Positions 1-17,236 of a DNA stretch of 32,000 nt are shown one piece after another. The DNA is from Formosa sp. Hel1_33_131 (GTDB lineage: Bacteria > Bacteroidota > Bacteroidia > Flavobacteriales > Flavobacteriaceae). Each line of letters starts with the position of its first letter. Position 1 is the first letter of the stretch. The notes under the pieces are model-generated. The model made no database searches. It worked only from the letters and a program-made list of their open reading frames with translations, and was not told the origin of the DNA. Made by a program: the position numbers and the translations under genes. The DNA is taken from NCBI RefSeq assembly GCF_001735745.1, contig NZ_CP017260.1:360001-392000 (forward strand). The letters are read 5' to 3'.

Positions 1-1104
1 TTGTTTTTCTGCATTATGCAATTTTATTTCTTGCATACCATTAATTAGCTCAATAACTTTAGATTGTTCTTGACTGATTTGAGAAAATTGCTTGTAATCT
101 AATTCTCTTTGCTTTTTTAGAAAAAACGAAATCCAAATAAAATATAAAATACTTCCAACTAAGAAAATTAAAAATATTTGAATATTATAATACAATAATA
201 TAACTCCAAAGGTTAATAAATTAAACATAGAAAATAGAACATTAAGTGTAGAGGACGTAAGGACTATTTCTATTCTTTTATGGTCATTTATTCTTTGCAA
301 AATATCACCTGTCATTCGAGTATCAAAAAAAGCTATAGGTAAACTCATTAGTTTTATAAAAAAATCTGAAACTAACGAAATGTTAATGCGAGTACTTAAA
401 TGTAATAGTATCCAACTTCTAATTATTTCTATTGATATTCGTCCAATAAATAAGGCTAATTGAGCAAAAAGAACAAGGTAAATAAAATGAATATCTTGAT
501 TTTTAATACCTACATCAACTATGCTTTGAGTTAAAAAAGGAAAAATTAATTGCAATAAACTACTTGCTACTAATCCAATTATTAACTGAACAATGTATTT
601 TTTATATTTAAGTAAATACTTTGTTAAAAAAGAAATATTTAATTTATGATTATTATCGAATTTAGATTCGTAAAACTTAGGTGTTGGCTCCATTAATAGT
701 ACCAAGCCTTCTTCAGTTTCATCTGAAGAATTATTACCAATCCAATGTTTAAGAAACTCGTCTTTAGTGTATTTTATTAAACCATAAGCTGGGTCAGAAA
801 TAAAATATGTATTATTTTTTATTTCGTATAAAACAACATAATGGTTTTTATTCCAATGTAAGATACATGGTAGAGGCGCTTCAGATAATCTATTTAAAGA
901 TATTTTAGCCCCCAAAGACCTTATGCCTATTTTTTCTAAAGCATCACTAATTCCTAAAATACTACTTCCTTGTCTTGTGGTTTCACTTAAATCTCTAAGT
1001 TCTTGAATAGAAATATTTTTTCCATAATATTTAGATATAATTTTTAGACATGTTGGACCACAATCTTTTAAGTCTGCTTGCTTATAAAAAGGAAATTTTT
1101 TCAA
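1..1104 (-). CDS. C39 peptidase-domain ABC transporter (double-glycine leader-cleaving peptide exporter). Only the N-terminal ~368 aa are present; the gene runs off the left window edge.
   Basis: Absent from the ORF track because it is partial and starts with TTG at 1104..1102, with an in-frame TAA two codons upstream. My translation is (M)KKFPFYKQADLKDCGPTCLKIISKYYGKNISIQELRDLSETTRQGSSILGISDALEKIGIRSLGAKISLNRLSEAPLPCILHWNKNHYVVLYEI... This is a canonical C39 N-terminus with the catalytic Cys (DCGPTC) and His (NHYVV). ABC membrane-domain helices follow (YIVQLIIGLVASSLLQLIFPFLTQSIVD...). Confidence 0.85.
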   Translation of the reverse strand, partial: MKKFPFYKQADLKDCGPTCLKIISKYYGKNISIQELRDLSETTRQGSSILGISDALEKIGIRSLGAKISLNRLSEAPLPCILHWNKNHYVVLYEIKNNTYFISDPAYGLIKYTKDEFLKHWIGNNSSDETEEGLVLLMEPTPKFYESKFDNNHKLNISFLTKYLLKYKKYIVQLIIGLVASSLLQLIFPFLTQSIVDVGIKNQDIHFIYLVLFAQLALFIGRISIEIIRSWILLHLSTRINISLVSDFFIKLMSLPIAFFDTRMTGDILQRINDHKRIEIVLTSSTLNVLFSMFNLLTFGVILLYYNIQIFLIFLVGSILYFIWISFFLKKQRELDYKQFSQISQEQSKVIELINGMQEIKLHNAEKQ

Positions 1105-1116
1105 ATGATTTTATTT

Positions 1117-2220
1117 TTAAACTAAACCATATTGTTTAATCACTTTTTGTTTTAGTGGATTTAAACTCCAGTCTTCCCACGTACATGTACTCGGATTATA
1201 CCCACATTTTAAAGGTTTACTATATAAATCCATTGGATTTTCTATAAAAGCTCTACAATCTGTACAATTAAATCTAAATTCACAGTCTTTACAAGTATCA
1301 ATTTGAGTTTTATTTATTGTCCAAAACTTATTAAAAGTCTTTTCTTTAATAATATCTTTTATTTTAGTTTCTTTTAAATTACCGTGTATTAAATCCATTA
1401 CTGGACAATTTTTAATATTCCCTGATGAATCTATTGAAACTTTTTTATTTAAACATCCATTTTTTTCCTCTAATTCAATATGATTATTTATGTTTTCAAA
1501 ATTTAAGTTTTCTTTATTAATAACTCCACAACACTTCCCTTTATTAAAAGGATATGTAATAAAATATAGTTTACCGAAATGAAGTGGATAGAATCCTTCT
1601 TTTTCAATTGAAAAATCTACGATTTCTGATTTAGGTGAGCTATATATGTATATATGAGATATTGGAGAGTAGTTTAAAATTAAGTCATTTAAATCTTTCG
1701 TAGATACTTCTTCGGAATAAGTCAAATGCATTTCAACATAATTAATATTTGTTTTATTAATTATATCTAATATTTTCTTTTTAAAGTTTAAATTAAATTT
1801 AGAAAGAAACCTTAACTGTACATCGTTGCATCTCAACTCTTCAATTTCAGCTACTAATTGTGTAAACATTGTTTCTGAAAAATTACTCTCATCAATTTCT
1901 ATAATTACATCTTTTAATAACACAAACTCATCATCAACACAGTTTTCTCTTGCGGGATAACTATCTAAATTACTAGAAAAAAAACCTATTTCATTATGTA
2001 GTAAAAACTCTATAAACTCTGAAAATGATTTTTTAGACTCATCATTAATAGTTTCTTCTATTTCATTAATTCTATTTCTATTTAAAATTTGTATTAAATC
2101 AAAATATTCATTTGAAATAAAGTATAATTCATTTCTCAAATAATCAATTATTAAACTTCTTTTGAGTCCTTTAACCACCTTACAACTACTTGAAAGTATA
2201 AAAAAATTATTATTCATCAT
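1117..2220 (-). CDS. SPASM-domain peptide maturase lacking the radical-SAM CX3CX2C motif (grasp-with-spasm type)
   Basis: ORF-track frame 1117..2289. The likely true start is MMNNNFFILSSSCKVVKGLKRSLIIDYLR (ATG at 2220 or 2217), which matches the usual N-terminus of this family. The C-terminus carries a full SPASM Cys set: C-x15-C with G-x4-C (CLNKKVSIDSSGNIKNC), CKDCEFRFNCTDC, then CGYNPSTC. No CxxxCxxC occurs anywhere in the protein. Confidence 0.75.
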   Translation of the reverse strand: MMNNNFFILSSSCKVVKGLKRSLIIDYLRNELYFISNEYFDLIQILNRNRINEIEETINDESKKSFSEFIEFLLHNEIGFFSSNLDSYPARENCVDDEFVLLKDVIIEIDESNFSETMFTQLVAEIEELRCNDVQLRFLSKFNLNFKKKILDIINKTNINYVEMHLTYSEEVSTKDLNDLILNYSPISHIYIYSSPKSEIVDFSIEKEGFYPLHFGKLYFITYPFNKGKCCGVINKENLNFENINNHIELEEKNGCLNKKVSIDSSGNIKNCPVMDLIHGNLKETKIKDIIKEKTFNKFWTINKTQIDTCKDCEFRFNCTDCRAFIENPMDLYSKPLKCGYNPSTCTWEDWSLNPLKQKVIKQYGLV

Positions 2221-2428
2221 TGTTAAAAGTTTTAAAATTAATTGTTTTAGAAATTTGTCTATTTGGATAATAGTCTCGCATATTATCACACTGAAGAAAA
2301 GAATTATATTTTATCATTTTTAACTCATCATGAATAAATGTAATTTGATTATAATAAATCTTTCTAAAATGAAGAGGTATTTTATTAAGTTTTTCCCCTT
2401 TTAACTCTACTTTATTTAAATATTCCAT
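2210..2428 (-). CDS. Hypothetical 72-aa protein between the ATP-grasp and SPASM genes
   Basis: The ORF almost exactly fills the otherwise 191-nt gap between two operon genes. It overlaps the ATP-grasp stop by 17 nt and the proposed SPASM start by 11 nt, a translational-coupling-like layout. I recognise no family. Confidence 0.4.
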   Translation of the reverse strand: MEYLNKVELKGEKLNKIPLHFRKIYYNQITFIHDELKMIKYNSFLQCDNMRDYYPNRQISKTINFKTFNNDE

Positions 2429-3425
2429 TTATTAAATATTTTGCTATTATTTTATCTAAATTATAATTACATGGCTCTGAGACCATTCCATATTGACCTA
2501 CAGGATTTATTTCTAAAAACACATAGTCTCCATTCTTATTTATTATTAAATCTACAGAGCCACAGTTTAACTTTAATTCATTAAAGAGGTTATCTAATTT
2601 TACTTCAACATTTTTAGGTAATTTATATGGTTCTGTTTTATTTGGTTTTTGACTATTGTATTTTCTAAAATCTACTACTGTTTGGTTTGATGATTGAGAA
2701 AATATAACCATTGAAAAGAAGTGCCCGTCCAAGTAGAAAGTTCTAATTTCTGACTCCTTTTCAATTTGTTCCATAATTAGTGATGGGAAAAAGTGAATTT
2801 CTTCATTAGTAGTGTGTAGTAACTCGTCTTCTATAAGTTCGGTATAAGAATAAAATCTTTGGTTACCTATAATATTATAAACTCCATTAGATATAGCTTT
2901 TGAAATAAGATTAGGATTATTTTTACCAAATTCATACATTTGAGTAGTATTTCTAACAATTTTAAAATTTGGTATTTTTAACCCTTGCTTCTTTGCTATT
3001 TCATTAACAATCAGTTTATTCAAATTAAATGTAGGTTTTCCTAAATTAATTTTGCAATTTTGATAAACTTGATAATAAATAAAATCAATTAAATCTTCTA
3101 CTTCATTTTTTATAAGATCACTATTTTTATCAATAAGAGAAGTTAAGTTAAACCCCTTACTAAATAACACATCTTCCTTTTTTAAATCAGTAAAATAAGA
3201 TTTTCCAATACCTCTTCTACGCCACCAACATGCTTTTGCATCAAGTAAATTGAAAACTTTATTGGTCAAAGTGTTTTTAATAAAAATACCTTTAGACGTA
3301 ATTTTATCAAATTTATGTATTTCATCATCTGCATTTAATCTGATGACTTTTTCTCCAAAATATTCCAACCATCTAATTACATCTGAAGTAGAAATATCAT
3401 ATTTAATTGTGAAAATTATAATCAT
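2412..3425 (-). CDS. ATP-grasp peptide maturase (graspetide-type macrolactone/lactam ligase, grasp-with-spasm type)
   Basis: 337 aa. The N-terminus MIIIFTIKYDISTSDVIRWLEYFG is typical of RiPP ATP-grasp maturases from Bacteroidota. The C-terminal GSVDLIINKNGDYVFLEINPVGQYG is the ATP-grasp Mg/ATP-binding core. It lies 11 nt downstream of the precursor genes. Confidence 0.8.
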   Translation of the reverse strand: MIIIFTIKYDISTSDVIRWLEYFGEKVIRLNADDEIHKFDKITSKGIFIKNTLTNKVFNLLDAKACWWRRRGIGKSYFTDLKKEDVLFSKGFNLTSLIDKNSDLIKNEVEDLIDFIYYQVYQNCKINLGKPTFNLNKLIVNEIAKKQGLKIPNFKIVRNTTQMYEFGKNNPNLISKAISNGVYNIIGNQRFYSYTELIEDELLHTTNEEIHFFPSLIMEQIEKESEIRTFYLDGHFFSMVIFSQSSNQTVVDFRKYNSQKPNKTEPYKLPKNVEVKLDNLFNELKLNCGSVDLIINKNGDYVFLEINPVGQYGMVSEPCNYNLDKIIAKYLINGIFK

Positions 3426-3436
3426 GCCTTACTTAA

Positions 3437-3601
3437 TTAATCAACATCGTGTGAATGAGAATCATTATCATTAGCCGTTGTCATAGTATGACGATGACTA
3501 GTATTGGTAGCCGTATTATTAGTTATTTCCTGTTTGCCTCCAGTTATATTTTGCAATTTGGAAGAGCTTAATTGTTCTACTTTAAATTTATTTAGTTTCA
3601 T
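3437..3601 (-). CDS. Precursor peptide P1 (54 aa) with a double-glycine leader
   Basis: Hand translation: MKLNKFKVEQLSSSKLQNITGG|KQEITNNTATNTSHRHTMTTANDNDSHSHDVD*. It has a Bacteroidota GG-type leader and a core with 10 Ser/Thr in 32 residues. It sits 11 nt upstream of the ATP-grasp gene and is below the ORF-track size cutoff. Confidence 0.8.
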   Translation of the reverse strand: MKLNKFKVEQLSSSKLQNITGGKQEITNNTATNTSHRHTMTTANDNDSHSHDVD

Positions 3602-3612
3602 ATTTTTTTTAT

Positions 3613-3780
3613 TTAGTCTGAATCATTTCTGAGTGCATCTTGGTCTGAACAACAGCAAACTGTTTGTCTACGACTACTATGAGTAGGACCTTCAAATGCA
3701 ACTTCTTTCATCTGCCCTGCAGCTACATTTTGTAATACTGAAGTAGATAGTTGTTCGAATTGAAAATTTGATAGTTTCAT
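3613..3780 (-). CDS. Precursor peptide P2 (55 aa) with a GG-type (AG) leader
   Basis: Hand translation: MKLSNFQFEQLSTSVLQNVAAG|QMKEVAFEGPTHSSRRQTVCCCSDQDALRNDSD*. The leader is nearly identical at the nucleotide level to that of P3. There is an 11-nt gap to P1. Confidence 0.8.
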   Translation of the reverse strand: MKLSNFQFEQLSTSVLQNVAAGQMKEVAFEGPTHSSRRQTVCCCSDQDALRNDSD

Positions 3781-3848
3781 AATCTTTAGTTTTAATTATA
3801 TTTGTATTAGTTATACTATTTGTGTCTAGCTTTTAGTATAATAACAAT

Positions 3849-3877
3849 ACACAAGAGGATTAAAAACCCTCTTGTGT
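3849..3877 (-). terminator. Perfect 10-bp stem-loop after P3; candidate partial terminator or processing/stability hairpin
   Basis: ACACAAGAGG (3849-3858) and CCTCTTGTGT (3868-3877) are exact reverse complements with a 9-nt loop. The hairpin lies 20 nt past the P3 stop. No clear U-tract follows on the minus strand. Confidence 0.45.
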
Positions 3878-3897
3878 TAATTGAGAAAAACTATAGC

Positions 3898-4062
3898 TTA
3901 ATCGCTATCCTGTCTACCAGTATCGTGATCTGTACCAGTACATGTTGTTCTTCGTCTTCTAGTGCTTGTAACACCTTCGTCTTCTAAAGCCATAGTTCCT
4001 CCTGCAATATTTTGTAATTCAGAAGTAGATAGCTTTTCAAATTGAAAATTTGATAATTTCAT
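3898..4062 (-). CDS. Precursor peptide P3 (54 aa) with a double-glycine leader
   Basis: Hand translation: MKLSNFQFEKLSTSELQNIAGG|TMALEDEGVTSTRRRRTTCTGTDHDTGRQDSD*. It is the first of the three tandem precursor genes, 101 nt downstream of the OMP gene. Confidence 0.8.
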   Translation of the reverse strand: MKLSNFQFEKLSTSELQNIAGGTMALEDEGVTSTRRRRTTCTGTDHDTGRQDSD

Positions 4063-4117
4063 AATTTCAAAAGATTAGAATTATGCCTACTCTTTTTAAG
4101 GTTTTCGGCTTACCCTG

Positions 4118-4131
4118 ATTGTTGCAACAAT
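4118..4131. promoter_or_regulatory. Perfect 14-bp palindrome ATTGTTGCAACAAT upstream of the precursor genes; candidate operator
   Basis: Exact self-complementarity read directly from the sequence. It lies 55 nt upstream of the P3 ATG, in the OMP-P3 intergenic region. Confidence 0.35.
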
Positions 4132-4163
4132 TTTGTTATCAGATAAAAAACTGATTTATATTT

Positions 4164-6548
4164 TTAATTAAGTCTTTGTTTATCTTCGTTAAATTTAGCT
4201 ATCCTTCTTTGCTTTACATTTTTACTACCAATTTTATAAGTAAGTGAAAGTGTAAAATTTCTCATATCGTTATAAATACTTGAAGACTGTGTGAAATTCT
4301 GATACTGTTCTTCTCCTACATTTCTATTTTGTTTAAATAAATCATTTCCAGATATATTTACTTGAAGGTTCTCTTCAAGTAATCTAAATTTCAATCCTAA
4401 ATCAAGACTAGCTCTGTTTCTTGATTTAAAAAAACCATCTACGTTCGGAAAGCTTTGAAAGAAATTGATTGTAAAAAAGGATGTTCTTTTTTCGTTTAAA
4501 GAAATGGTGTTTTTTGTTGAAAAATAGACACCATAACCATCATAAGATTTTAATGTTTCATTTTCAAAATTTGAATTTGCTTTATTAAAATAAGTACTTA
4601 CAGAATTATAACTATTAACCCATTTAAAAAGTGTTAAACGATGGCTAACATCTAAACCATAAGTGTATTGATTATATAGGTTTTCCGGCTTCGTAATAAT
4701 CTCATTAGAATTTTCATTAGCTATAGTAATAAAGTCTATAACATCAATAAGCTTTGAACCATATAATATTAGCGATAAGTTGTTTTTATAAATGTATGAA
4801 AATTCTAAATTATGAGTAAATGAAGGCAATAAAAAAGGATCCCCCGATTCATAAGAATATGGGTCTGAATAAATTCTGAAAGGATTTAAATTTGAAAAAC
4901 CTGGTCTATCAATTCTTTTTGAATAAGACATAGATAGTGAATGATTTTCTTTTGGATCATATGAAATATATGCACTCGGAAAAATATTATTTAAATTATT
5001 AGTGTTTGTCTGGTTTAATGTAGGAGAGAAACCTTTTAAATAGGTATTTTCGTATCTTAAACCTATTTGTGCAATCCATTTTTCACTTAATTCTTTCTCT
5101 ATTGAAATATATAAGGCTGATGTTCTTTCTTCATATTCGAATTGATTAGACCTGTTTAAATTGATTATTGGAGTTCCATATGTTGTATCGTAGTAAAACA
5201 GACTACTATTATTATTTATAAAAGTTAATTTTCCTCCAACCTCTAAATCAAAAGCATCATAAGGTAGTGTGAAATCTGTTTTTAAAGATGCTACTTCATA
5301 TTTGTTATCAGAATTATTTAGAACAGATGTATTTAAACTATTAACACCATTACCCAGCCTATTAATACTATTGAAATCTATATCATTTGAACTATCTTTT
5401 ACTAAGTAATCGATATTTAAACTGAATTTCTTTCCAATACTATCTAGCTTTAAATCATAATATCCATTAATAGAATGAAAATTATACTTATTTTTATTTC
5501 TTGTTAACGTTGTTAAAATAGAGTCTAAAACAAAATTTTCCTTTTGAATAAAATTACTTATATTATTTCCTCTTTGACTAATATCCCAAAAACTACCGCT
5601 ATAAATAAATCCTGTTTCTGATTTTTCATTTATTTTATAATTCGAATTTAGATTTAGCATTAACCCTTTAGAAGAATCTTTTCTGTCTTTTGATGTATTC
5701 CAAAATCTAGAAGTGTATTCTACATCGTTTGTAGATATAGATTTTTTAGCTTCTGTATCAGCAGAGACGTTCAGTGATATATTTAATTTTTTAGTCGCAA
5801 ATTTCACATTACTGGTTGGTATAAAGGCAGCATATGTTCTTTGTATATATGTAGCTCCAACAGAACCATCCCATCCTAAGTTTGGATTTTTTTTAGTTAC
5901 AATATTAATTAAACCACTGTTTCCTTCAGCGTCATATTTAGCAGGAGGCGTTGTAATAACTTCTATTTTTGAAATATTGTCTGAACGAATACTTCTTAAA
6001 TATGCTTCTAAATCACTACTTGATAAATTGAGCACTCTTCCATCTATTAAAACATTAACACTACTTTTTCCAATAATTTTGATTCCACCACTTGAAACAT
6101 CAATTCTTGGAGTTCGTTGCAAAACTTCTAATCCATCAACTCCTTGAGAAACAATACTATTTTCAACATTAAAAATTAATCGGTCGACTTTTTTTTGGAT
6201 TAAAGGTTTTTTTGCTGAAATAACTATTTCATCTAATTTATTTTTACTGTGTATTAATGTAATATTACCTAAATCAATGTCTTTATTTTTAACTAGTACT
6301 TCTTTAACCCAGTCCTTATAACCAATAAAAGTAACTATTAAATTGTATTTTCCTTTTTTTGATTTTATTGTAAAAGAACCTTGATCGTTGGTTATAGAGC
6401 CTGAAACAAAATTATTATCAACGTCAGTCAATATAACATTCGCAAACTCTATATAGCTTATAGAGTCTTTTACCTTCCCCTTTACAATAATTTGAGAAAA
6501 AGAAAAAAAGGGAATAATTGAGGTTAAAGCTAATAATAAATACTTCAT
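4164..6548 (-). CDS. Outer-membrane beta-barrel / TonB-dependent-receptor-like protein with an N-terminal carboxypeptidase-regulatory-like domain
   Basis: 794 aa. There is a signal peptide (MKYLLLALTSIIPFFSFSQ), then a CarboxypepD_reg-like fold (IVKGKVKD...GSFTIKSKKGKYNLIVTFIGY). A plug-like segment follows (DEIVISAKKP...VDRLIFNVENS...LEVLQRTPRIDV...ISKIEVITTPPAKYDAEGNSGLINIVTKK), then a long barrel rich in aromatic and Asn residues. The C-terminus SLTYKIG plus a basic tail is typical of the Bacteroidota OMP_b-brl_3-type family. Confidence 0.8.
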   Translation of the reverse strand: MKYLLLALTSIIPFFSFSQIIVKGKVKDSISYIEFANVILTDVDNNFVSGSITNDQGSFTIKSKKGKYNLIVTFIGYKDWVKEVLVKNKDIDLGNITLIHSKNKLDEIVISAKKPLIQKKVDRLIFNVENSIVSQGVDGLEVLQRTPRIDVSSGGIKIIGKSSVNVLIDGRVLNLSSSDLEAYLRSIRSDNISKIEVITTPPAKYDAEGNSGLINIVTKKNPNLGWDGSVGATYIQRTYAAFIPTSNVKFATKKLNISLNVSADTEAKKSISTNDVEYTSRFWNTSKDRKDSSKGLMLNLNSNYKINEKSETGFIYSGSFWDISQRGNNISNFIQKENFVLDSILTTLTRNKNKYNFHSINGYYDLKLDSIGKKFSLNIDYLVKDSSNDIDFNSINRLGNGVNSLNTSVLNNSDNKYEVASLKTDFTLPYDAFDLEVGGKLTFINNNSSLFYYDTTYGTPIINLNRSNQFEYEERTSALYISIEKELSEKWIAQIGLRYENTYLKGFSPTLNQTNTNNLNNIFPSAYISYDPKENHSLSMSYSKRIDRPGFSNLNPFRIYSDPYSYESGDPFLLPSFTHNLEFSYIYKNNLSLILYGSKLIDVIDFITIANENSNEIITKPENLYNQYTYGLDVSHRLTLFKWVNSYNSVSTYFNKANSNFENETLKSYDGYGVYFSTKNTISLNEKRTSFFTINFFQSFPNVDGFFKSRNRASLDLGLKFRLLEENLQVNISGNDLFKQNRNVGEEQYQNFTQSSSIYNDMRNFTLSLTYKIGSKNVKQRRIAKFNEDKQRLN

Positions 6549-6607
6549 GTTTTTAATTGATTTGAGACTCTAAACTTACAACTAGATTCAACTTAAACAA
6601 AACTTAT

Positions 6608-6651
6608 GTAGTTGAAATTTATAAATTTCATGTCCGTATTTATAAATTTCA
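6608..6651. promoter_or_regulatory. Two copies of a palindromic operator in the divergent OMP/lanB promoter region
   Basis: GAAATTTATAAATTTC at 6614-6629 is a perfect 16-bp palindrome. The 14-mer ATTTATAAATTTCA recurs exactly 21 bp later (6617 and 6638). The same 14-mer is also found at 11591. Confidence 0.6.
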
Positions 6652-6755
6652 GCCTCTATAATTATTTATAAAACACTCATTTTGAGGTTTTTAAATTTAT
6701 TTTAGGAACTAATTATAAAATCCGTAGATTTACAGTCCCAAAACCTACTTAGTGC

Positions 6756-9008
6756 ATGTTAAAACCTAAAAACCCTTATACTTTTTTCAATACTTATTGT
6801 TTAAGAACACCTCTTTTACCATTGAATCGGGTTTTAAATGCACTACAAAAAAGAGGTTTTGAGGATGAGTCTCTAAAAGAGTATTGGCAAAACACTCATT
6901 TAAAAGAAGCTGTTTTTTTAGCATCGCCCTACCTTTTCTCTGAACTAGAATTACTATTTGAGGGAACAATCACTTCTGTAAAAAAAGCAGAAAAGTTAAA
7001 ACAAAGCTTTTTAAAATATGTTCTCAGAGCCTCCTCTCGTTGTACGCCTTTTGGACTGTTCTCTGGAGTCTCTTTAGGTCATTTTAATGATACAAGTTGT
7101 ATAGAACTAGAAACAACTAAAACCTTGAAACGCCGAACACGTTTGGATGTGAACTATATGGTTGCGCTCTCAAACTATTTAGAAAAAGAGCCCGTCATAA
7201 AAAACCAATTGGTGTTTTACCCCAACAGTTCGCTCTATAAAATTGCGGATCAATATCGATATATTGCATTTGAAATAGATGGTTTAAAACGCTCTTATGC
7301 TGTTGAAGGCATAGAGTATTCGGTTTATATAGAGACCGTCTTAAATGAAGCTAAAATGGGTAAAACCATTACTGAATTGGCCGTTACAATTACGGACGAA
7401 ACGATCACTGAAGAGGAAGCCACCCACTTTATTCATGAACTCATAGACAACCAGGTCTTAAGTAGTGAATTAGAACACTCTATTTCAGGAACTGATATGC
7501 TATCCCAAACACTAGTGACCTTAAAACAATTAAAACAGTGTGACTCTAATATACAAGACCTACTTAGCATTCAAAAAACACTTCAAAAATTAGATGACAC
7601 TGACAGAAATACCAGTGAAGATTATAAAAAATGTAATCCGATTTTAGAGGCCCTTGGCGTGCCTTATGAGACGAAAGATGTGTTTCAAACGGATCTTTTT
7701 ACAACGACTAAAAACAATGCTTTAAACAAAAAAGTAGCGCACGAATTACGCCGGGCTTTACCACTTTTAAGTAGCCTTAACAAAAAAGATCACAACCCTC
7801 ATTTAGAGCAATTCAAAAAAGCGTTTAAAGAGCGTTATGAAACAAGAAAAATTCCATTAGCTATGGCTTTGGATATAGAAATGGGAGTTGGCTACATTCA
7901 AAATGAAGCTGTTTCAAATACCGTTTCGTTTTTAAATGACATTACGCCTCAAACAGATCACTCCTCTTCTCAAAACTTCTCTTTATCAGAAATTGAAATT
8001 AGCATTCAAAAATTAATGTTTGATGCATTAAAGAATCAGCACTATAGCATTGAACTAAAGGAAGCAATTTTCGCGGATCGTGAAGTGTCTATAGATCATT
8101 TACCTGACACCCTTTCCGCACTCATTGAAGTGATTACTCTAAACAATGAAGAATGTGTTTACATACACTCTTTTGGAGGTTCCAATGGGGCTAATTTACT
8201 TGCTCGGTTTTGTGAGGAGACTGGAGAATTATTTGATTACGTTAAAGAAATGACCTGTATAGAACAGCAGATGAACCCACACAGTGTTTTAGTTGAACTC
8301 ATCCATTTGCCTGAAGCTAGAGTTGGAAATGTGATTAAAAGACCGCATTTAAGAGCTTATGAATTGCCCTATCTCGGCAAGTCTAATCTGCCGTTAGAAC
8401 AGCAAATTAATATTAATGATGTTTTAGTATTTATTAAAAACAACCGTATTGTTTTATGGTCAAAAAAATTAGACAAAGCCATTCTACCTCGTTTAACAAA
8501 TGCTCATAATTACACAAAAAATACGCTTCCTATCTATCATTTTTTATGTGATTTACAAACTCAAAATATTCAAAAAAAGCTTGGATTTTCTTGGGGCGCA
8601 CTCGCCAACAATCATTCCTTTTTACCTAGAGTGTGTTATAAAACCCTCATTCTTTCCAAAGCCACTTGGATTATTGAAACTAAAAAATTTCAATCTTTAT
8701 TTAAATTAGACAAAAACGGAGCGAACTTATTGGATTTAATAAGCGGGTGGAGAGCAACTATTCAAATGCCTCAATATGTTCAGTTAAAAGAAGCCGATAA
8801 TACGTTACTTATAAATCTCGAAAATACAACAATGCTTCATTTGTTATTCGATTCGGTTAAACGCAAAACACAGTTTATCTTAGAAGAATTTTTATTTACA
8901 GAAAAACCTATCGTAAAAAATGAGGATAATGATTTTTTTACGAATCAATTTGTAGTGTCATTTTACAATGAGGAAAAACTAAAAAAAGCTGTTAATTATG
9001 CAAACTAG
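6756..9008 (+). CDS. Lantibiotic dehydratase family protein (LanB N-terminal, tRNA-Glu-dependent glutamylation domain)
   Basis: 750 aa. The N-terminus NPYTFFNTYCLRTPLLPLN and the RCTPFGLFSGVSLG motif are hallmarks of the Lant_dehydr_N family. The size fits a stand-alone glutamylation domain. Confidence 0.85.
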   Translation: MLKPKNPYTFFNTYCLRTPLLPLNRVLNALQKRGFEDESLKEYWQNTHLKEAVFLASPYLFSELELLFEGTITSVKKAEKLKQSFLKYVLRASSRCTPFGLFSGVSLGHFNDTSCIELETTKTLKRRTRLDVNYMVALSNYLEKEPVIKNQLVFYPNSSLYKIADQYRYIAFEIDGLKRSYAVEGIEYSVYIETVLNEAKMGKTITELAVTITDETITEEEATHFIHELIDNQVLSSELEHSISGTDMLSQTLVTLKQLKQCDSNIQDLLSIQKTLQKLDDTDRNTSEDYKKCNPILEALGVPYETKDVFQTDLFTTTKNNALNKKVAHELRRALPLLSSLNKKDHNPHLEQFKKAFKERYETRKIPLAMALDIEMGVGYIQNEAVSNTVSFLNDITPQTDHSSSQNFSLSEIEISIQKLMFDALKNQHYSIELKEAIFADREVSIDHLPDTLSALIEVITLNNEECVYIHSFGGSNGANLLARFCEETGELFDYVKEMTCIEQQMNPHSVLVELIHLPEARVGNVIKRPHLRAYELPYLGKSNLPLEQQININDVLVFIKNNRIVLWSKKLDKAILPRLTNAHNYTKNTLPIYHFLCDLQTQNIQKKLGFSWGALANNHSFLPRVCYKTLILSKATWIIETKKFQSLFKLDKNGANLLDLISGWRATIQMPQYVQLKEADNTLLINLENTTMLHLLFDSVKRKTQFILEEFLFTEKPIVKNEDNDFFTNQFVVSFYNEEKLKKAVNYAN

Positions 9009-9858
9009 ATTTTTTTTAGGGGATGAATGGATTTACTATAAATTGTATTGTGGTAAACGAACAGCGGATCATATTCTTGTGGATATTATAAAGCCATTTA
9101 CTGAAAAACTATTAAAAGAAAACCTAATCACCAAATGGTTCTTTATTCGGTATCACGACCCTAACCATCATTTACGGGTGCGCTTTCATTGTGAAGATCT
9201 TTCTAAAATAGGGACGATTATTAATACCTTTAAAAATGCGATCGACCATCAAGTTGCTAATGACTTTATTTGGAAGGTTCAAACAGATACCTACCAAAGA
9301 GAAATTGAACGCTATGGGAAACTCACAATGATTGGATCAGAGAATCTGTTTTTTCATGACAGCAGCACTAGCATTAATGCTTTGAATTTGATTGAAGATG
9401 AGGAACTCTTATTTTTATTTGTTTTAAAATCCATAGATGCATTGTTAAGTGTTTTTGAATACGATTTAAAAGCTAAAATTAGTTTCTCTAAAGTGAACCT
9501 GACTTCTTATAGAAATGAGTTTAAAGCGGAGAAAAACTTCAGCAAACAGCTAAATAAAAAATATCAAAAATTAAGACCTAAAGTGGAATCGTTCATGGCT
9601 TTAAAAGAAAGTAGTGATTATGACGCTCTCTTAAACTTAATAACGACTAAGAATAGAGAAATCGAAACAATTAAAACACCTATTTTAGAGTTGCATAAAA
9701 ATAATAAATTAGAAGTTCCGTTAAATCATTTACTATCTAGTTATATACACATGATGGTCAACCGTCAATTTAGAGACAAACAACGTTTATTTGAATTGGT
9801 TTGTTATGATTGCCTATTTCGATATTACAACAGCCTATTTGCAAAACAATTAAATTAA
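8998..9858 (+). CDS. Thiopeptide-type bacteriocin biosynthesis domain protein (LanB C-terminal / SpaB_C glutamate-elimination domain)
   Basis: 286 aa. WIYYKLYCGKRTADHILVDIIKPF...KWFFIRYHDPNHHLRVRFH is the signature of Lant_dehydr_C. It overlaps the upstream gene by 11 nt, giving a split LanB as in thiopeptide systems. Confidence 0.8.
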   Translation: MQTRFFLGDEWIYYKLYCGKRTADHILVDIIKPFTEKLLKENLITKWFFIRYHDPNHHLRVRFHCEDLSKIGTIINTFKNAIDHQVANDFIWKVQTDTYQREIERYGKLTMIGSENLFFHDSSTSINALNLIEDEELLFLFVLKSIDALLSVFEYDLKAKISFSKVNLTSYRNEFKAEKNFSKQLNKKYQKLRPKVESFMALKESSDYDALLNLITTKNREIETIKTPILELHKNNKLEVPLNHLLSSYIHMMVNRQFRDKQRLFELVCYDCLFRYYNSLFAKQLN

Positions 9859-9864
9859 CTCAAC

Positions 9865-11541
9865 GTGAAGTATAAATTATCCCCCATATTTATCTTTCTA
9901 TTTCTGACTTCAACCCTTTGGAGCCAACAAACGGCTTTAAGTTATGAAGTTTTAGAAAACAATATTAAGACTTCAAAGTCAGATTCTATTCGTGAAATAT
10001 ATGCTTCGACGTTACTTTTAAAAGCAAAAAAAGAAAATAATGTTCTAAAAATTGCTGATGGCTATAATCATTTGTCAGAAATTAACTCCCACACTTTAAG
10101 TGGTTTAAAATATGCTGATAGTATTATTGACTTGACAGCTACATTAATAAATTCAAAATACCCTGCTGAAGGTTATCTTCAAAAAGGAATTCAGTTGTTT
10201 TATTTAGCAAAACATAATGAATCCTTAGACAATTATATTAGGGCTCTTAATGATTTTCAGGCAAATAATAATACTTATGGAAAAGTAAGAGTGAACCATT
10301 ATATAGGTCTATTAAAAAACAGTATAAATGAAGAGAAAGAAGCGTTAGAAATTTTTAAAAAAAATATTTCTTTTTTTGAAAGTTCAAAAAATAAACATTT
10401 ATACAAAAGACAATACTTAAAGTCCTTATTTGCAATTGTAGATTCTTATAACAGAAATAAAATATTAGATTCAGCAGAAATATATGGAAGAATGGGTATT
10501 AAGGAAAGCTTTCAAAGTCATGACAAGTATTTGTATAATTATTTTTTATTATCATATGGATCAACTAAAACTTTTAAGGGAGAATATAAAGTAGCGATTG
10601 ACAGTCTTATTAAAGGCACCAAATTATTAACAAATGAAAAGCTTGTAATAGCAGGAAGTTATTTGATTTTAAGTCAAGCTTTTGAAGGCCTAAAAGAGTA
10701 TTCAAAATCATTACTATATTTAGATAAAGTAGATTCATTATATCAAAAAAATCCTGAAACAATATTTCAAGCAAAGGAATCTTATAAGATTTTACTTAAG
10801 TATAGTCAAAAAGAAAATAATCCCCAAAAGCAATTAAATACAATTAAAAAACTTCTTAAAGTTGATAGTATTATTAATGTTAAACACAATCAGTTAAGTA
10901 AGAATATTGTAAAAAAACATGATACTCCAGAATTAATTTTAGAAAAAGAACGCATAATTAAACAATTGAATAATAGTTATTCTTTATCCAAAAATAAAAT
11001 TATTATTTTATCTATTGTCATTATCTTCTTAATTATCATTTTGCTTTATAGTATAAGAAAAAGCATAATTAATAAGAAAAAATTTGAAATTATTAAAGCA
11101 AAAATTAATTCCGATGTTAAAGAAGAAAACAAAGAAAATTTAATAAAGGTTACTACTACAACTACTATTACTACTGGAATACCCGAAGATTTAGTAAAAG
11201 AAATTATACTTAGTTTAGAGAAATTTGAAAGTTCAAATAAGTTTTCAAAAAAACATTATACATTAAACACCCTTGCAAAAGAACTAAAAACAAACAGCAC
11301 CTATTTATCTAAAGTAATAAATGCAACAAAAGAAGCAAATTTTGCTAATTATTTGAACAATTTAAAAGTTGATTTTGCTATTAAAAGGTTATCAAAGAAT
11401 AAGCAATTTAGAGCATATACAATAAAAGCTATTGCAGAGGATTCTGGTTTTAATAACGCACAATCATTTTCGGCTGCATTTCATAAAAAAACAGGTATTT
11501 ATCCATCATATTTTATTAAAGAACTTAATAATGAAAAATGA
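9865..11541 (+). CDS. Membrane-spanning one-component regulator: signal peptide, TPR-like repeats, one TM helix, C-terminal AraC-type HTH
   Basis: GTG start. The signal peptide is MKYKLSPIFIFLFLTSTLWSQQ. About 340 aa of helical-repeat sequence follow, then the TM helix IIILSIVIIFLIIILLYSI and a basic stretch RKSIINKKK. The C-terminus HYTLNTLAKELKTNSTYLSKVIN...IKAIAEDSGFNNAQSFSAAFHKKTGIYPSYF is an AraC/XylS HTH. Confidence 0.8.
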   Translation: MKYKLSPIFIFLFLTSTLWSQQTALSYEVLENNIKTSKSDSIREIYASTLLLKAKKENNVLKIADGYNHLSEINSHTLSGLKYADSIIDLTATLINSKYPAEGYLQKGIQLFYLAKHNESLDNYIRALNDFQANNNTYGKVRVNHYIGLLKNSINEEKEALEIFKKNISFFESSKNKHLYKRQYLKSLFAIVDSYNRNKILDSAEIYGRMGIKESFQSHDKYLYNYFLLSYGSTKTFKGEYKVAIDSLIKGTKLLTNEKLVIAGSYLILSQAFEGLKEYSKSLLYLDKVDSLYQKNPETIFQAKESYKILLKYSQKENNPQKQLNTIKKLLKVDSIINVKHNQLSKNIVKKHDTPELILEKERIIKQLNNSYSLSKNKIIILSIVIIFLIIILLYSIRKSIINKKKFEIIKAKINSDVKEENKENLIKVTTTTTITTGIPEDLVKEIILSLEKFESSNKFSKKHYTLNTLAKELKTNSTYLSKVINATKEANFANYLNNLKVDFAIKRLSKNKQFRAYTIKAIAEDSGFNNAQSFSAAFHKKTGIYPSYFIKELNNEK

Positions 11542-11581
11542 ATTCAAGTTGTTGATTTAAAAAGTCTTGGCTAATTATTTT

Positions 11582-11604
11582 GTTGTTGATATTTATAAAT
11601 TTCA
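11582..11604. promoter_or_regulatory. Third copy of the palindromic operator, upstream of peptide P4
   Basis: GTTGTTGATATTTATAAATTTCA matches 6608-6630 at 21 of 23 positions. The 16-mer at 11588-11603 is 15/16 identical to the perfect palindrome. GTTGATATTTATAAATTTCAAC (11585-11606) is itself a 22-bp near-palindrome. It lies 65 nt upstream of the P4 ATG. Confidence 0.6.
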
Positions 11605-11668
11605 ACATATAAAATAGCATTAAATCAAAATTATAGCAGTAGATTTATAAAACTCTAAATTTAAAATT

Positions 11669-11815: not shown

Positions 11816-11860
11816 AAAAAACACACACCATATTCTAATTTATTATGGTGTGTGTTTTTT
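11816..11860 (+). terminator. Rho-independent terminator / attenuator after P4
   Basis: ACACACACCATA (11821-11832) and TATGGTGTGTGT (11844-11855) form an exact 12-bp stem with an 11-nt loop. A T-run follows (to 11860) and an A-run precedes it. Confidence 0.75.
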
Positions 11861-11875
11861 AAATTAATAAACCCT

Positions 11876-14053
11876 ATGAACTATAAATCTATTGCTATTT
11901 TAATTCTATGTATTTTAATTATGCAATGTAAAAATAAGAAAGAATTAGTGTTAGCACCAATTAATGTTGTTGTTGATGAAATTCATGGACAAAGAATAGA
12001 AGATCCGTATCGTTATATGGAAAATATTGATGATAGTATTTATATAAATTGGTTAAAAGGTCAAAAAGAAAATAAAGAATCAGTAGTAGGTAATATTTCT
12101 AATAGAGATAATTTAAAATTAAAAATAGAAAAGTTTCAAGAAAGGACTCCTGAAAAAATCTCAAAACTAACAATCATGGATAATGATGTTTACTTTTATT
12201 TAAAAGAGAACACAACATCTAAAGTAAAAAAACTGTATTCAAGAGATGGCTTTAAAGGAGAAGAAGTTTTATTATATAATCCTGAAAACTTTGATAATGA
12301 ACATCCTTATGTAATAAATTATATTAAACCTAGTTGGGATACTTCAAAAGTAGTTATAGGCTTAACAAAAAATGACGAAGAATTTTCAATATTAAAAATC
12401 CTTGATGTAAAAACTAAAAATTTAGTTGGAGATATTAAAATAACTAATACACTTCCAACTTCTCTAGGAGGTGTTAAATGGTTGCCTGATGATTCTGGTA
12501 TTATTTATGTAAATGTACCAGTAATTGATTCTAAATCTAAAAAATATTTACACAATTCGGAAGTTGTACTATATAGATTTAATGATAACCCTAAAGAATC
12601 TCCCACTGTTATTTTTTCAAAAAAGGAGAATCCAAAACTGAAAATAAAGGAAGAAGATTTCCCGTTAATTTACTTAGACAACCAAAATGTTGAATATATT
12701 ATTGGAGTGGTTACTAGAGCTTCAAGATATAGAGATACTTATTATATAAAAATAGATGAACTTAATAATAAAAAAATTAAATGGGAGCCATTATTTAAAA
12801 AAGAAGAAAAGATTAAACGCTTTATTGTTACAAAAGATGAAATCATTTATATGACTTCAAAAACAACTCCCAATTTTCAAATATGTAAAACCTCACTAAG
12901 TAATCCTGATTTTGAAAATCCACAAGTTTTAGTTTATGAGAATACTAAAGAAGTTATTACAGATTTTGTTATAACAAAACAAGGCTTGTTTTTCGTAAAA
13001 ATAAAAAATGGTGTTGATGCAAAACTTTATAAAATAGAAAATAATCAAGAAAAAAATATCGAGATCCCAAAACCTTCAGGAAGTATAAATGTATCCTCCA
13101 AAAATGAAAACTCTAATGATTTATGGATATCGATTGATGGGTGGACGCATAAAAAAGAGACCTATAAATATGATTATGATAAAAGTGTATTTATCCCTCA
13201 AAATTTATACCCAGTAGCAGAATATTCGTTACTCAATGATGTGGTTGTTAAAGAAATTGAAGTACCATCGTATGATGGTACATTAGTTCCATTATCTGTA
13301 ATTTATAAAAATAGCATTAAATTAAATGGAGAAAACAGAATGTTACTTACTGGCTATGGCGCTTATGGCATAACTGATAAACCTGTGTTAGACGACTATT
13401 TACTAAACTGGATTAATGAAGGAGGAATCTATGCTTTAGCACATGTGAGAGGTGGAGGAGAAAAAGGAGATGCATGGCATAAAGAAGGGTTTAAAACAAC
13501 AAAACCAAATACATGGAAGGACTTTATTTCGTGTACTGAATATTTGATTGATAAAGAATATACTTCAAATAAAAATTTAGCTGTTTGGAGCGGAAGTGCT
13601 GGAGGAATACTTGTAGGTAGAGCGATTACTGAACGTCCAGATTTATATGCTGCCGCAATAATACGGGTCGGATTACTAAATACTTTACGTTCAGAGTTCG
13701 CTCCAAACGGAAAAAATAATATTAAAGAATTTGGAACAATTAAAGATTCATTAGAATTTAAATCTCTATTAGAAATGGATGCGTTTCACAACATAAAAGA
13801 TGGTGTTGAGTATCCAGCAGTTTACTTAACAGGAGGTATGAATGATGCTAGAGTTGCTGTTTGGCAACCTAGCAAATTTGCTGCAAAATTGCAAAAAGCA
13901 AATGCTTCTGAAAATCCTATTATTTTAGATATTGATTTTGATGGTGGTCATGGATTTGATGCAACTTCAAATAAAAAAAATAATGAATTAGCAGATATAC
14001 TTTCTTTTGCACTCTGGCAAACTGGACATCCAGATTATCAATTGAATAGATAG
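11876..14053 (+). CDS. Prolyl oligopeptidase (S9A family), lipoprotein, copy 1
   Basis: I prefer ATG 11876 (MNYKSIAILILCILIMQCKNK, signal plus lipobox-like Cys) over the track's GTG 11852, which lies inside the terminator stem. The N-terminal beta-propeller region and C-terminal hydrolase domain carry an intact triad context: GSAGG (Ser), GGMNDARV (Asp), DGGHG (His). Confidence 0.9.
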   Translation: MNYKSIAILILCILIMQCKNKKELVLAPINVVVDEIHGQRIEDPYRYMENIDDSIYINWLKGQKENKESVVGNISNRDNLKLKIEKFQERTPEKISKLTIMDNDVYFYLKENTTSKVKKLYSRDGFKGEEVLLYNPENFDNEHPYVINYIKPSWDTSKVVIGLTKNDEEFSILKILDVKTKNLVGDIKITNTLPTSLGGVKWLPDDSGIIYVNVPVIDSKSKKYLHNSEVVLYRFNDNPKESPTVIFSKKENPKLKIKEEDFPLIYLDNQNVEYIIGVVTRASRYRDTYYIKIDELNNKKIKWEPLFKKEEKIKRFIVTKDEIIYMTSKTTPNFQICKTSLSNPDFENPQVLVYENTKEVITDFVITKQGLFFVKIKNGVDAKLYKIENNQEKNIEIPKPSGSINVSSKNENSNDLWISIDGWTHKKETYKYDYDKSVFIPQNLYPVAEYSLLNDVVVKEIEVPSYDGTLVPLSVIYKNSIKLNGENRMLLTGYGAYGITDKPVLDDYLLNWINEGGIYALAHVRGGGEKGDAWHKEGFKTTKPNTWKDFISCTEYLIDKEYTSNKNLAVWSGSAGGILVGRAITERPDLYAAAIIRVGLLNTLRSEFAPNGKNNIKEFGTIKDSLEFKSLLEMDAFHNIKDGVEYPAVYLTGGMNDARVAVWQPSKFAAKLQKANASENPIILDIDFDGGHGFDATSNKKNNELADILSFALWQTGHPDYQLNR

Positions 14054-14099
14054 CGTAGCATTAACAATAGTTAAAATTAGAGTCATATAAGAATTGTTT

Positions 14100-16281: not shown

Positions 16282-16419
16282 ATCTTTTTTCTTGTCAAGC
16301 TGAACCTGCCTACCGTCAGGAAGTCCTGCCTGACGGTAGGCAGGTTTATTTTAGCTTCTCATAATTATTGGTTTTCAATACATTGAGATTCTGAAATAAA
16401 CCTACCATTCCAACAAAAA
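16282..16419. repeat. Repeat copy A (~135 bp), upstream flank of the toxin-antitoxin pair
   Basis: It shares ATCTTTT..TT.TCAAGCTGAA with 17091-17223. It also shares AGCTTCT(C/T)ATAATTATTGGTTTTCAAT(A/T)CATTGAGATTCTGAAAT (45 nt, 2 mismatches) and AAACCT(A/G)CCATTCCAACAAAA. Each copy carries a different hairpin insertion. Confidence 0.65.
16303..16352 (+). terminator. Strong rho-independent terminator after the second prolyl oligopeptidase gene
   Basis: AACCTGCCTACCGTCAGG (16303-16320) and CCTGACGGTAGGCAGGTT (16329-16346) form an exact 18-bp stem with an 8-nt loop, followed by TTTATTTT. Confidence 0.8.
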
Positions 16420-16495
16420 CACCCGCTAACGCGGACTTGCAGTCCGTGTAAATTAAAACAACCTGAATTGAGGTGAGTAAAATACTATAAAAAAT

Positions 16496-16511
16496 TAATT
16501 TTGTAAATTTG
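16496..16511 (+). promoter_or_regulatory. Two adjacent matches to the Bacteroidota -7 promoter box TAnnTTTG, upstream of the antitoxin gene
   Basis: TAATTTTG (16496-16503) and TAAATTTG (16504-11), located 6-14 nt before the ATG at 16517. The consensus is recalled from the published Bacteroides promoter consensus. Chance matches are common in AT-rich DNA. Confidence 0.3.
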
Positions 16512-16516
16512 TAACT

Positions 16517-16738
16517 ATGGACATACAAACACGAAAAATAGAATTTGTACAGGCATTTTTAAAACTGCAAAGTGAGGAAATGATTTCTCTTTTTGAAAGC
16601 ATTCTAAAATCGGGAAATAAAGATGATTTTTATCCAATGAGTATAGATGAATTGAATAAACGTATTGACAAATCAGAAAAAGATTTTGAAACTGGGAAAT
16701 CTAAAAACCATGATGAAGTTTTTGCAAAATACAGCTAA
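16517..16738 (+). CDS. Putative antitoxin (73 aa) of a type II TA pair
   Basis: A small acidic protein immediately upstream of a ParE/RelE-like toxin, overlapping it in a TAATG junction. The assignment rests on context; I do not recognise a specific family. Confidence 0.55.
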   Translation: MDIQTRKIEFVQAFLKLQSEEMISLFESILKSGNKDDFYPMSIDELNKRIDKSEKDFETGKSKNHDEVFAKYS

Positions 16739-17052: not shown

Positions 17053-17090
17053 CATCTGCTGGCTAAAACTTCGCTAGCTACAACGTAAGT

Positions 17091-17223
17091 ATCTTTTCCT
17101 TATCAAGCTGAAACGCCTTTCAGCTTCTTATAATTATTGGTTTTCAATTCATTGAGATTCTGAAATCAGAATGACAGGTTTAGTTACTTTTTAGACAATC
17201 AGAAACCTGCCATTCCAACAAAA
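17091..17223. repeat. Repeat copy B, downstream flank of the TA pair; also the convergent terminator region for the toxin gene and argH
   Basis: See copy A. This copy contains the hairpin AAGCTGAAA/TTTCAGCTT (17105-17125) and ATTCTG/CAGAAT (17156-17171). AATGACAGGTTT (17169-17180) pairs with AAACCTGCCATT (17203-17214) at 11 of 12 positions. Confidence 0.65.
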
Positions 17224-17236
17224 TCACTCTCCACCC

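Follow-up and report, generated by a model that had tools for sequence, protein, structure and literature searches.

Activators of the AraC/XylS family, such as AraC at the I1-I2 sites of araBAD, RhaS, XylS, MelR, and ToxT at its toxboxes, are double helix-turn-helix (HTH) proteins whose cognate sites lie upstream of or abutting the −35 region of promoters with a poor upstream element, with two protein-sized sites on one face of the helix. In a 32,000-nucleotide stretch of Formosa sp. Hel1_33_131 (RefSeq assembly GCF_001735745.1, contig NZ_CP017260.1, forward-strand positions 360,001 to 392,000; hereafter the window, whose numbering we use), a palindrome recurs in the control regions of a peptide-natural-product gene cluster and resembles these sites: it has a double-HTH protein as its candidate cognate partner, it lies upstream of or abutting the −33 region of promoters with a poor upstream element, its two protein-sized sites share a helix face, here 21 bp apart, and, as for AraC or RhaS, they span a footprint-sized interval from about −75 to −35. 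Unlike them, it is perfectly palindromic, its A/T core of 10 bp is invariant, and the predicted promoters beside it are of the Bacteroidetes sigma-A type; the adjacent regulator is also different, being membrane anchored, with an extracytoplasmic tetratricopeptide repeat (TPR) sensor rather than a cytoplasmic ligand-binding domain. We consider it probable that the palindrome is the operator at which this regulator activates a small peptide gene, P4, and a divergent operon of an outer-membrane protein (OMP) and graspetide genes.

In topology the regulator resembles TfoS (PMC3903286), a one-component regulator in the membrane of Vibrio cholerae that joins a sensor in the periplasm to an AraC-like domain in the cytoplasm, and either protein would, while membrane bound, directly activate a specific promoter. 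It differs from TfoS in its sensor, an eight-repeat TPR superhelix for which a sequence relationship to that of TfoS was neither tested nor seen, in its targets, which are peptide and OMP genes rather than a small RNA, and in its phylum. In the literature we found no description of this regulator family, operator, or cluster type, and the site described here would give a large, uncharacterised family of membrane-anchored TPR/AraC proteins in marine Flavobacteriia its first defined operator and promoter geometry.

A conserved palindrome in two control regions

An earlier note on this DNA had pointed to a perfect 16-bp palindrome, a 14-mer repeated 21 bp away with a third copy upstream of P4, and an equal spacing from the start codons of OMP and P4, and had judged the exact copies improbable by chance; all of this is borne out. 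The 16-mer GAAATTTATAAATTTC (6614 to 6629) is exactly self-complementary, and the perfect palindrome around it even reaches 18 bp (TGAAATTTATAAATTTCA, 6613 to 6630). The 14-mer ATTTATAAATTTCA has further copies at 6638 to 6651, 21 bp away start to start, and at 11591 to 11604. The distance from the 16-mer edge to the ATG is 65 nt both for OMP (6549 to 6613) and for P4 (11604 to 11668), and the two start codons (OMP, 6548 on the minus strand; P4, 11669) each lie 73.5 bp from their own dyad. The exact 14-mer gives four hits in the window, one of them being the reverse reading of the palindrome, compared with 0.01 expected from 100 dinucleotide shuffles, none of which attained four, and it is the only 14-mer that occurs at least three times. 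When two mismatches are tolerated there are nine hits against 4.0 expected, which is not significant; because the enrichment disappears, the evidence from the window consists of the exact copies only.

Judged by its conservation, the functional unit is a 20-bp palindrome with the consensus TTGAWATTTATAAATWTCAA and the core ATTTATAAAT, rather than the asymmetric motif GTWGTTGAWATTTATAAATTTCA that had been proposed as the unit; a mutant version of this core would be ATTGCGCAAT. The 10-bp core occurs at three places in the 32 kb and nowhere else, which we designate O1, O2, and O3. Operator copy O1 (TTGAAATTTATAAATTTCAt, 6612 to 6631) contains the 18-bp perfect palindrome and has its dyad between 6621 and 6622; O2 (tccgtATTTATAAATTTCAg, 6633 to 6652) is complete in its right half-site only, with a dyad between 6642 and 6643, 21 bp from that of O1; and O3 (TTGAtATTTATAAATTTCAA, 11586 to 11605), with a dyad between 11595 and 11596, lies within an imperfect extended palindrome at about 11575 to 11616. 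A further segment, ATTTATAAAACACTC at 6664 to 6678, had been noted as a related element followed by a near −7 box, TCATTTTG, at 6677 to 6684. The sequence is present as described; its core is not conserved outside close relatives, a related locus (L015) lacks the segment altogether, and no core pairs occur at the corresponding spacing among the loci that we compared. We therefore rejected ATTTATAAAACACTC with TCATTTTG as an operator copy and its −7 box, since the pair is not conserved beyond the closest relative.

Conservation was assessed in 80 metagenomic loci, comprising 822 kb, that carry homologs of the regulator. Among the 22 loci in which the regulator is at least 38% identical to that of the window, 20 have TTGAWATTTATAAATWTCAA or a symmetric variant 11 to 70 bp past the regulator stop codon, and this copy is followed by a P4-like peptide gene. 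All 11 loci with lanB have the motif about 100 to 135 bp before that gene, as a tandem pair in nine. The motif stands at these same two positions in loci with regulators 38 to 66% identical, and where the regulators are 51 to 66% identical the element is upstream of lanB and again just past the regulator gene; the proposal in the earlier note of a cluster-specific control element common to the OMP/lanB and P4 upstream regions is thus upheld, both positions being kept in relatives. The tandem cores are spaced by 21 bp in 14 of 21 pairs and by 20 to 23 bp in 18, and in an alignment with two relatives the second copy appears as an indel of about 21 bp. Loci without lanB keep the regulator, the motif, the peptide gene, and an oligopeptidase.

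The exact core ATTTATAAAT occurs 136 times in the 822 kb, compared with about 15 expected. In most of the 80 loci, among them loci with regulators only 29 to 35% identical, it is no more than about 400 bp away from the regulator gene. In these distant homologs the element takes the form GTCGnnATTTATAAATnnAGAC and is positioned upstream of the regulator gene. The outer bases vary symmetrically by lineage (TTGA, GTGA, CTGA, TC(G/T)A, or GCAA) around a constant centre, AATTTATAAATT. From this pattern of conservation we conclude that the palindrome is a real, widely conserved regulatory site.

Promoter geometry and the candidate activator

The flavobacterial sigma-A −7 box, TAnnTTTG, occupies −12 to −5, and the median 5′ untranslated region (UTR) is about 24 nt (PMC9723704). 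We scored as −7 boxes those segments with at least 5/6 matches to TAnnTTTG, for which the background is 0.018 per position, at 30 sites, namely the copies in front of the peptide gene and, for the pairs upstream of lanB, their minus side. At 22 of the 30 a box starts 43 to 44 bp from the dyad (binomial P ~5e-26), and at four more it lies 52 to 53 bp away. Among 34 sites of the distant branch, the box is at 43 to 44 bp in 13 and at 64 to 65 bp in 18, always facing away from the regulator gene. These distances, added to the described position of the box, place the dyads near −55 and −76.

In the window, the predicted −7 box of the OMP operon, TAAGTTTA (6571 to 6578, minus strand), starts 43 bp from the O1 dyad, with a predicted start at about 6566 and an 18-nt 5′ UTR, which would set the O1 dyad at about −55.5 and that of O2 at about −76.5. 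The predicted P4 box, TAGATTTA (11640 to 11647, plus strand), starts 44 bp from the O3 dyad, with a predicted start at about 11652, a 17-nt 5′ UTR, and O3 at about −56.5. With these predicted transcription starts, the site lies upstream of or abutting the −33 region on a fixed helical face. Neither the OMP nor the P4 promoter has a TTG at −33, as expected for activator-dependent promoters.

These two promoters are the ones at the canonical distance. The candidate −7 box of the lanB-lanBC-araC operon, also TAGATTTA (6725 to 6732, plus strand), precedes the lanB ATG by 31 bp and is 82 bp away from the O2 dyad; a promoter there, with a predicted start at about 6737, would have O2 at about −94.5 and O1 at −115.5, so that the dyads are 82 to 103 bp away. 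In relatives, boxes with 6/6 matches are located 29 to 44 bp before lanB and 71 to 92 bp from the nearest dyad, in no constant phase.

The candidate binding protein is the 558-aa product of 9865 to 11541 (plus strand), which carries the ~100-aa double HTH of AraC/XylS proteins; Pfam assigns HTH_18 (E 4.1e-12, residues 470 to 551) and HTH_AraC (E 3.6e-5), and sequence hits of its C-terminal domain in the PDB include ToxT, Lin2118, and a response-regulator AraC domain. An N-terminal signal-like segment and a hydrophobic stretch at about residues 375 to 397, followed by a Lys/Arg-rich segment, are evident in the sequence. The AlphaFold2 model (pLDDT 86) has an N-terminal signal-like helix, a TPR superhelix of eight repeats (27 to 340), a continuous helix (343 to 416) that includes the hydrophobic membrane segment, and C-terminal DNA-binding helices (424 to 556), and the nearest Foldseek matches of the TPR part are the peptide-binding TPR domains of LGN/Pins. 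The protein is accordingly predicted to have its TPR domain in the periplasm and its AraC-type domain in the cytoplasm, with one transmembrane helix between them, uniting in one polypeptide the extracytoplasmic sensor, transmembrane segment, and cytoplasmic DNA-binding domain of a membrane-bound one-component regulator; neither Pfam nor NCBIfam finds a kinase or receiver domain in it. The long single helix that leads from the TPR to the DNA-binding domain would suit a parallel dimer, and such a dimer would fit a two-fold symmetric site. Homologs occur commonly in the genera Tenacibaculum, Polaribacter, Kordia, and Aquimarina, as well as in many marine metagenome-assembled genomes (MAGs); culturable carriers are Tenacibaculum sp. 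M341 and TC6, Polaribacter filamentus ATCC 700397, and Kordia spp.

This adjacent membrane-anchored AraC-type regulator is the protein most likely to bind the palindrome. We assign the operator to it because it is the only conserved DNA-binding protein of the module and because its family tracks the core, a conservation that favours the candidate already named in the earlier note. Like the core of the DNA site, the protein's first recognition helix, TNSxYLSK(V/I)IN, is invariant, and in its second the AQSF sequence becomes xESF in the operator class with the outer bases TC(G/T)A, represented by three loci only. We propose that a dimer of the cluster-encoded regulator binds the palindrome and, when bound just upstream of the −33 region, activates sigma-A promoters that lack a recognisable −33 TTG, acting from a dyad near −55 and from another at −76, two helical turns farther away. 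O3 would then drive P4, and O1 and O2 together would drive the divergent operon of OMP, three graspetide precursors, an ATP-grasp protein, a SPASM protein, and an exporter; any effect on the lanB-lanBC-araC operon would be exerted from a greater distance. The usual AraC/XylS boxes are asymmetric monomer sites of 17 to 20 bp, commonly arranged as direct repeats. Here each site is a symmetric palindrome, while pairs of sites form direct repeats at a 21-bp spacing; the arrangement fits a head-to-head dimer on each palindrome, which is atypical for the family.

Several points weigh against this proposal. Every functional step in it is one that we infer, including which protein binds, that it activates rather than represses, and where transcription starts. 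Asymmetric or direct-repeat sites are the usual targets of AraC/XylS proteins, for which a perfect palindrome is atypical, though not unknown. The −7 boxes of OMP and P4 match at only 5/6 positions, with A in place of G as the last base. Whether lanB and the regulator itself are under this control is uncertain because the candidate promoter is 82 to 103 bp off and in no fixed phase. Single sites extend to perfect palindromes of 28 to 44 bp with flanks that differ between sites in the same locus, a variation that one sequence-specific protein does not explain. Finally, the 20-mer is also found in unrelated contexts and so cannot by itself identify the system outside Flavobacteriia.

Competing explanations and possible peptide signalling

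The palindrome could be a genuine operator and yet be bound by a different, unlinked transcription factor, or serve a repressor rather than an activator. It is dimeric one-HTH regulators, rather than AraC proteins, that typically use perfect palindromes, and some of the copies in one MAG (JAUIAB01) are on contigs where no regulator gene was found in the 8-kb block. We nonetheless think this unlikely: among the conserved genes of the module there is no second one for a DNA-binding protein, the core keeps within about 400 bp of genes of this one regulator family in most of the 80 loci, which were sampled independently, and, where a promoter has no −33 TTG, an upstream dyad at −55 or −76 is in an activator position, overlapping none of the −33, −7, and +1 positions.

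We also judge it improbable that the palindrome acts as a nucleic-acid structure (an RNA hairpin or a DNA cruciform) and not, or not only, as a protein site. As a hairpin it would be part of the 3′ UTR of the lanB-araC transcript and act as a stabiliser, a processing site, or a leaky terminator that insulates P4. The copy before P4 is always just past the regulator stop codon, single copies are often perfect palindromes with half-lengths of 14 to 22 nt whose differing flanks are still complementary, and the RNA hairpins predicted for loci L015 and L018 have −19.7 and −26 kcal/mol (z ~−8), that of the window −10.1 kcal/mol (z −3.1). The complementarity of variable flanks is seen even within L015, and positions 11 to 14 are paired in 54 of 100 cases compared with 38.9 ± 4.8 in shuffles. 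However, the stem has its T-run on the 5′ side and its A-run on the 3′ side, no U-tract follows the hairpin, and a terminator scan reported nothing at 6612 to 6652 or 11586 to 11605. We rejected an intrinsic terminator after araC, as the stems are A/U-rich, lack a U-tract, and also occur in divergent regions. The element is present in divergent promoter regions without an upstream transcript end, namely O1/O2 of the window and L015 position 2777, a site that follows no gene and nevertheless has an extended palindrome, and the tandem copies lack extended stems. A hairpin would also leave unexplained the invariant 10-bp core at 29 to 100% regulator identity, the 21-bp phasing, and the 43/64-bp distance to the −7 box, and the flank complementarity could be a mutational by-product of templated correction of quasi-palindromes. 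For the extended palindromes themselves, a second role as a 3′-UTR hairpin, cruciform-assisted binding, and functionless templated correction are all possibilities.

That the palindrome is itself a promoter element, either as back-to-back −7-like boxes or as an A/T-rich, UP-like element contacted by RNA polymerase alone, seems very unlikely. Its inner segment TAAATTTC matches TAnnTTTG at 5/6 positions in both orientations, with the mismatch at the last base, and the element, rich in A/T, has its centre near −55, the location of UP elements in other bacteria. Many copies, however, read TAAATATC, with 4/6 matches only, there is no TTG 19 to 21 bp upstream of the internal box, and better −7 boxes, with 6/6 matches in many loci, lie at the fixed distance of 43 to 44 bp from the dyad. 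The element is, moreover, confined to the neighbourhoods of one regulator family and missing from the other promoters of the window, and its outer, G/C-containing bases shift symmetrically with the regulator lineage. With a poor internal match, no properly spaced TTG, and a better box at a fixed distance, we rejected the palindrome as a sigma-A core promoter. Chance matches in A/T-rich intergenic DNA, or a passive small repeat or mobile sequence, form the least likely explanation of all, in spite of the 33% G+C of the window, the loss of enrichment at two mismatches, and the exact 20-mers in unrelated phyla, given the large excess of exact copies over expectation and a position and spacing that are kept in dozens of divergent loci although the intergenic DNA on either side is not conserved.

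If the palindrome is an activator operator of the adjacent regulator, regulator, palindrome, and peptide gene could together constitute a peptide autoinduction (quorum-sensing-like) circuit in a Gram-negative lineage of Bacteroidota, a tentative suggestion that we hold to be doubtful. P4 would be exported, the neighbouring prolyl oligopeptidases and split LanB would trim or modify it, and the groove of the TPR superhelix would sense it in the periplasm; the membrane-anchored AraC domain would then activate the P4 promoter, giving positive feedback, and the OMP/graspetide operon, and the peptide core and its sensor would diversify into pherotypes. We found no peptide communication system of this kind described for Bacteroidota in the literature, and if P4 is the signal, the circuit would be one.

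The layout recalls the RRNPP peptide quorum-sensing systems of Firmicutes, such as PlcR-PapR (PMC10075063). In both, a gene for a TPR regulator is directly followed by one for a small secreted peptide, here a conserved peptide gene of the GG-leader type, and the peptide cores vary between lineages. The PlcR box is palindromic; the box before the peptide gene is palindromic here as well and would likewise give positive feedback. Unlike in RRNPP proteins, the TPR domain is predicted to be periplasmic and the HTH is C-terminal and AraC-type rather than N-terminal and XRE-type, and the peptide has a GG leader with genes for modifying enzymes and peptidases adjoining. We rejected membership of RRNPP, since there is no cytoplasmic TPR receptor, no XRE-type HTH, and the host is not one of the Firmicutes; the circuit layout alone is similar. 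Autoinduced lantibiotic operons such as that of nisin share with the Formosa cluster a cluster-encoded regulator and operator copies before both the precursor gene and a second operon, and differ in that NisRK is a two-component kinase and response regulator with direct-repeat nis boxes at Gram-positive promoters of the sigma-70 type.

Trans-envelope pairs, such as FecA-FecR-FecI and the SusC-like proteins with an anti-sigma factor in Bacteroidetes, offer another comparison. In the distant branch, the targets, transcribed divergently from the regulator gene, encode ~920-aa TonB-dependent-receptor-like proteins and ~240-aa secreted proteins, and the operator would drive a TonB-dependent-receptor-like protein with a FecR_C/STN-like segment. 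In five distant-branch loci (L063, 2873 to 5635; L068; L069; L076; L081) these ~920-aa OMPs have Plug, CarbopepD_reg_2, and barrel domains with the FecR_C/STN-like segment at the N terminus. The first target gene of the window likewise encodes a TonB-dependent-receptor-like OMP, and the window shares the order OMP-operator-regulator, with lanB inserted before the regulator. Here, unlike in FecA-type pairs, there is no sigma or anti-sigma factor, and the inner-membrane protein would itself bind DNA. The distant-branch layout hints at signalling between the OMP and the TPR regulator; an interaction between the OMP and the TPR domain is pure conjecture.

Matches in other genomes and genes of the cluster

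The motif, together with the 43/64-bp rule, allows a regulon to be predicted from sequence; the predicted responders are small peptide genes, graspetide operons, TonB-dependent-like OMPs, and one NusG-like gene with a nonribosomal peptide synthetase (NRPS), and the operator could be a practical handle for activating silent peptide-natural-product clusters. In the NRPS case (L013), a tandem pair faces a NusG-like gene (4061 to 4588), which is followed by the large NRPS gene (1 to 4058), and the same type of regulator may control a nonribosomal peptide cluster via a specialised NusG paralog.

A genome scan had been suggested as a way to define the regulon. The exact 20-mer gives at least 120 matches across all genomes; among the matches listed, about 15 are in Flavobacteriia, and the rest are dominated by unrelated sequences. 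Eight of these ~15 have the regulator inside the 8-kb block, and several other Flavobacteriia matches listed adjoin genes of the RiPP type (a RiPP being a peptide that ribosomes synthesize and that is then modified post-translationally), encoding a precursor, an oligopeptidase, or a SPASM protein; at least one match (L133) is inside a coding open reading frame (ORF) and looks like a chance hit. About half of the matches listed are a coding motif, ..IDIYKYQ.., in MAGs of gut Bacilli and Tenericutes; some 60 loci among L094 to L211 (gut Bacilli, Erysipelotrichaceae, and Tenericutes MAGs) have the 20-mer within a conserved region coding for ..(S/G)T-IDIYKYQ-(K/R)LYR... About 18 of those listed are a TGGCA-linked element in Ignavibacteria. 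In these Ignavibacteria/Melioribacter-like genomes TGGCA(A) stands a fixed 5 to 6 nt before the 20-mer TTGATATTTATAAATATCAA (L104, L118, L141, L156, L157, L173, L199, and L203, and in the reverse orientation L121, L148, L161, L175, L187, L198, and L213); this could be a sigma-54-like −24/−12 arrangement or a repeated element, and it appears unrelated to the flavobacterial system. In the MAG JAUIAB01 ('Bacteroidia bacterium 5_bin.25'), the motif is found on four contigs (L097, L114, L125, and L190) with near-identical flanks, gtggTTGATATTTATAAATTTCAAc.ac. One copy precedes by 118 bp the gene of a 1272-aa secreted protein for which Pfam gives no hit (L097, 1768 to 5586), others are upstream of small lipoprotein genes, and the occurrence beside different secreted-protein and lipoprotein genes fits the pattern of a regulon.

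The presumed minus-strand operon of the window begins with OMP (4164 to 6548), a TonB-dependent-receptor-like protein with CarbopepD_reg_2 and OMP_b-brl_3 domains, and continues from 4062 to 1117 with three GG-leader (graspetide) precursors (3898 to 4062, 3613 to 3780, and 3437 to 3601) and two maturases, a grasp-with-spasm ATP-grasp protein (2412 to 3425) and a SPASM protein (1117 to 2289); a C39-peptidase ABC exporter, also on the minus strand, runs past the window start. On the plus strand, the split LanB dehydratase (6756 to 9858; Lant_dehydr_N, 6756 to 9008, and Lant_dehydr_C, 8998 to 9858) is encoded between O1/O2 and the regulator gene, and it cannot be producing a lanthipeptide here because no LanC cyclase is present. 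The intergenic region 6549 to 6755 contains no small ORF of at least 20 aa. P4 (11669 to 11815, plus strand), a 48-aa GG-leader peptide (MKKTELKKEKLGIKKFQISKINNPQLIIGG|NANLGDDDDGDHPTLVTK) directly 3′ of O3, belongs to no family in NCBIfam or Pfam, and two S9 prolyl-oligopeptidase genes (11852 to 16268, plus strand) are downstream of it.

The P4-like peptides that follow the regulator in the window and related loci have a common leader, KL(S/G)IKKFQISKI(N/K)NPQxI(I/V)GG, and short, variable cores that are rich in Asp, Pro, and Thr and lack Cys; neither Pfam nor NCBIfam has a family for them. In one locus (L006, 2954 to 7156) the regulator is 99% identical to that of the window, yet the peptide core is NKNLADDDEVRTGTIGD rather than NANLGDDDDGDHPTLVTK and there is one oligopeptidase rather than two; the peptide varies within a population. 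In another (L026, 2892 to 7665, compared with 6756 to 11541 of the window), LanB-N and LanB-C are 92 to 95% identical and the adjoining regulator only 44%, and the regulator/peptide/oligopeptidase module seems to have been exchanged independently of lanB.

After P4, positions 11816 to 11860 consist of an A-run, a stem (ACACACACC...GGTGTGTGT) with a 17-nt loop, and a T-run, which looks like a bidirectional terminator; it escaped the terminator scan, which admits loops of no more than 8 nt. The stem overlaps the listed GTG start of the first oligopeptidase ORF, for which the source-contig gene calls begin at about 11876. Further downstream, a ParE-toxin/antitoxin pair (16518 to 16739 and 16738 to 17052) is positioned between direct repeats of about 140 bp (16286 to 16422 and 17094 to 17227) that are 89 to 94% identical, with a 21-nt inverted repeat at 16303 to 16346, and the region from 16286 to 17227 looks like an inserted cassette.

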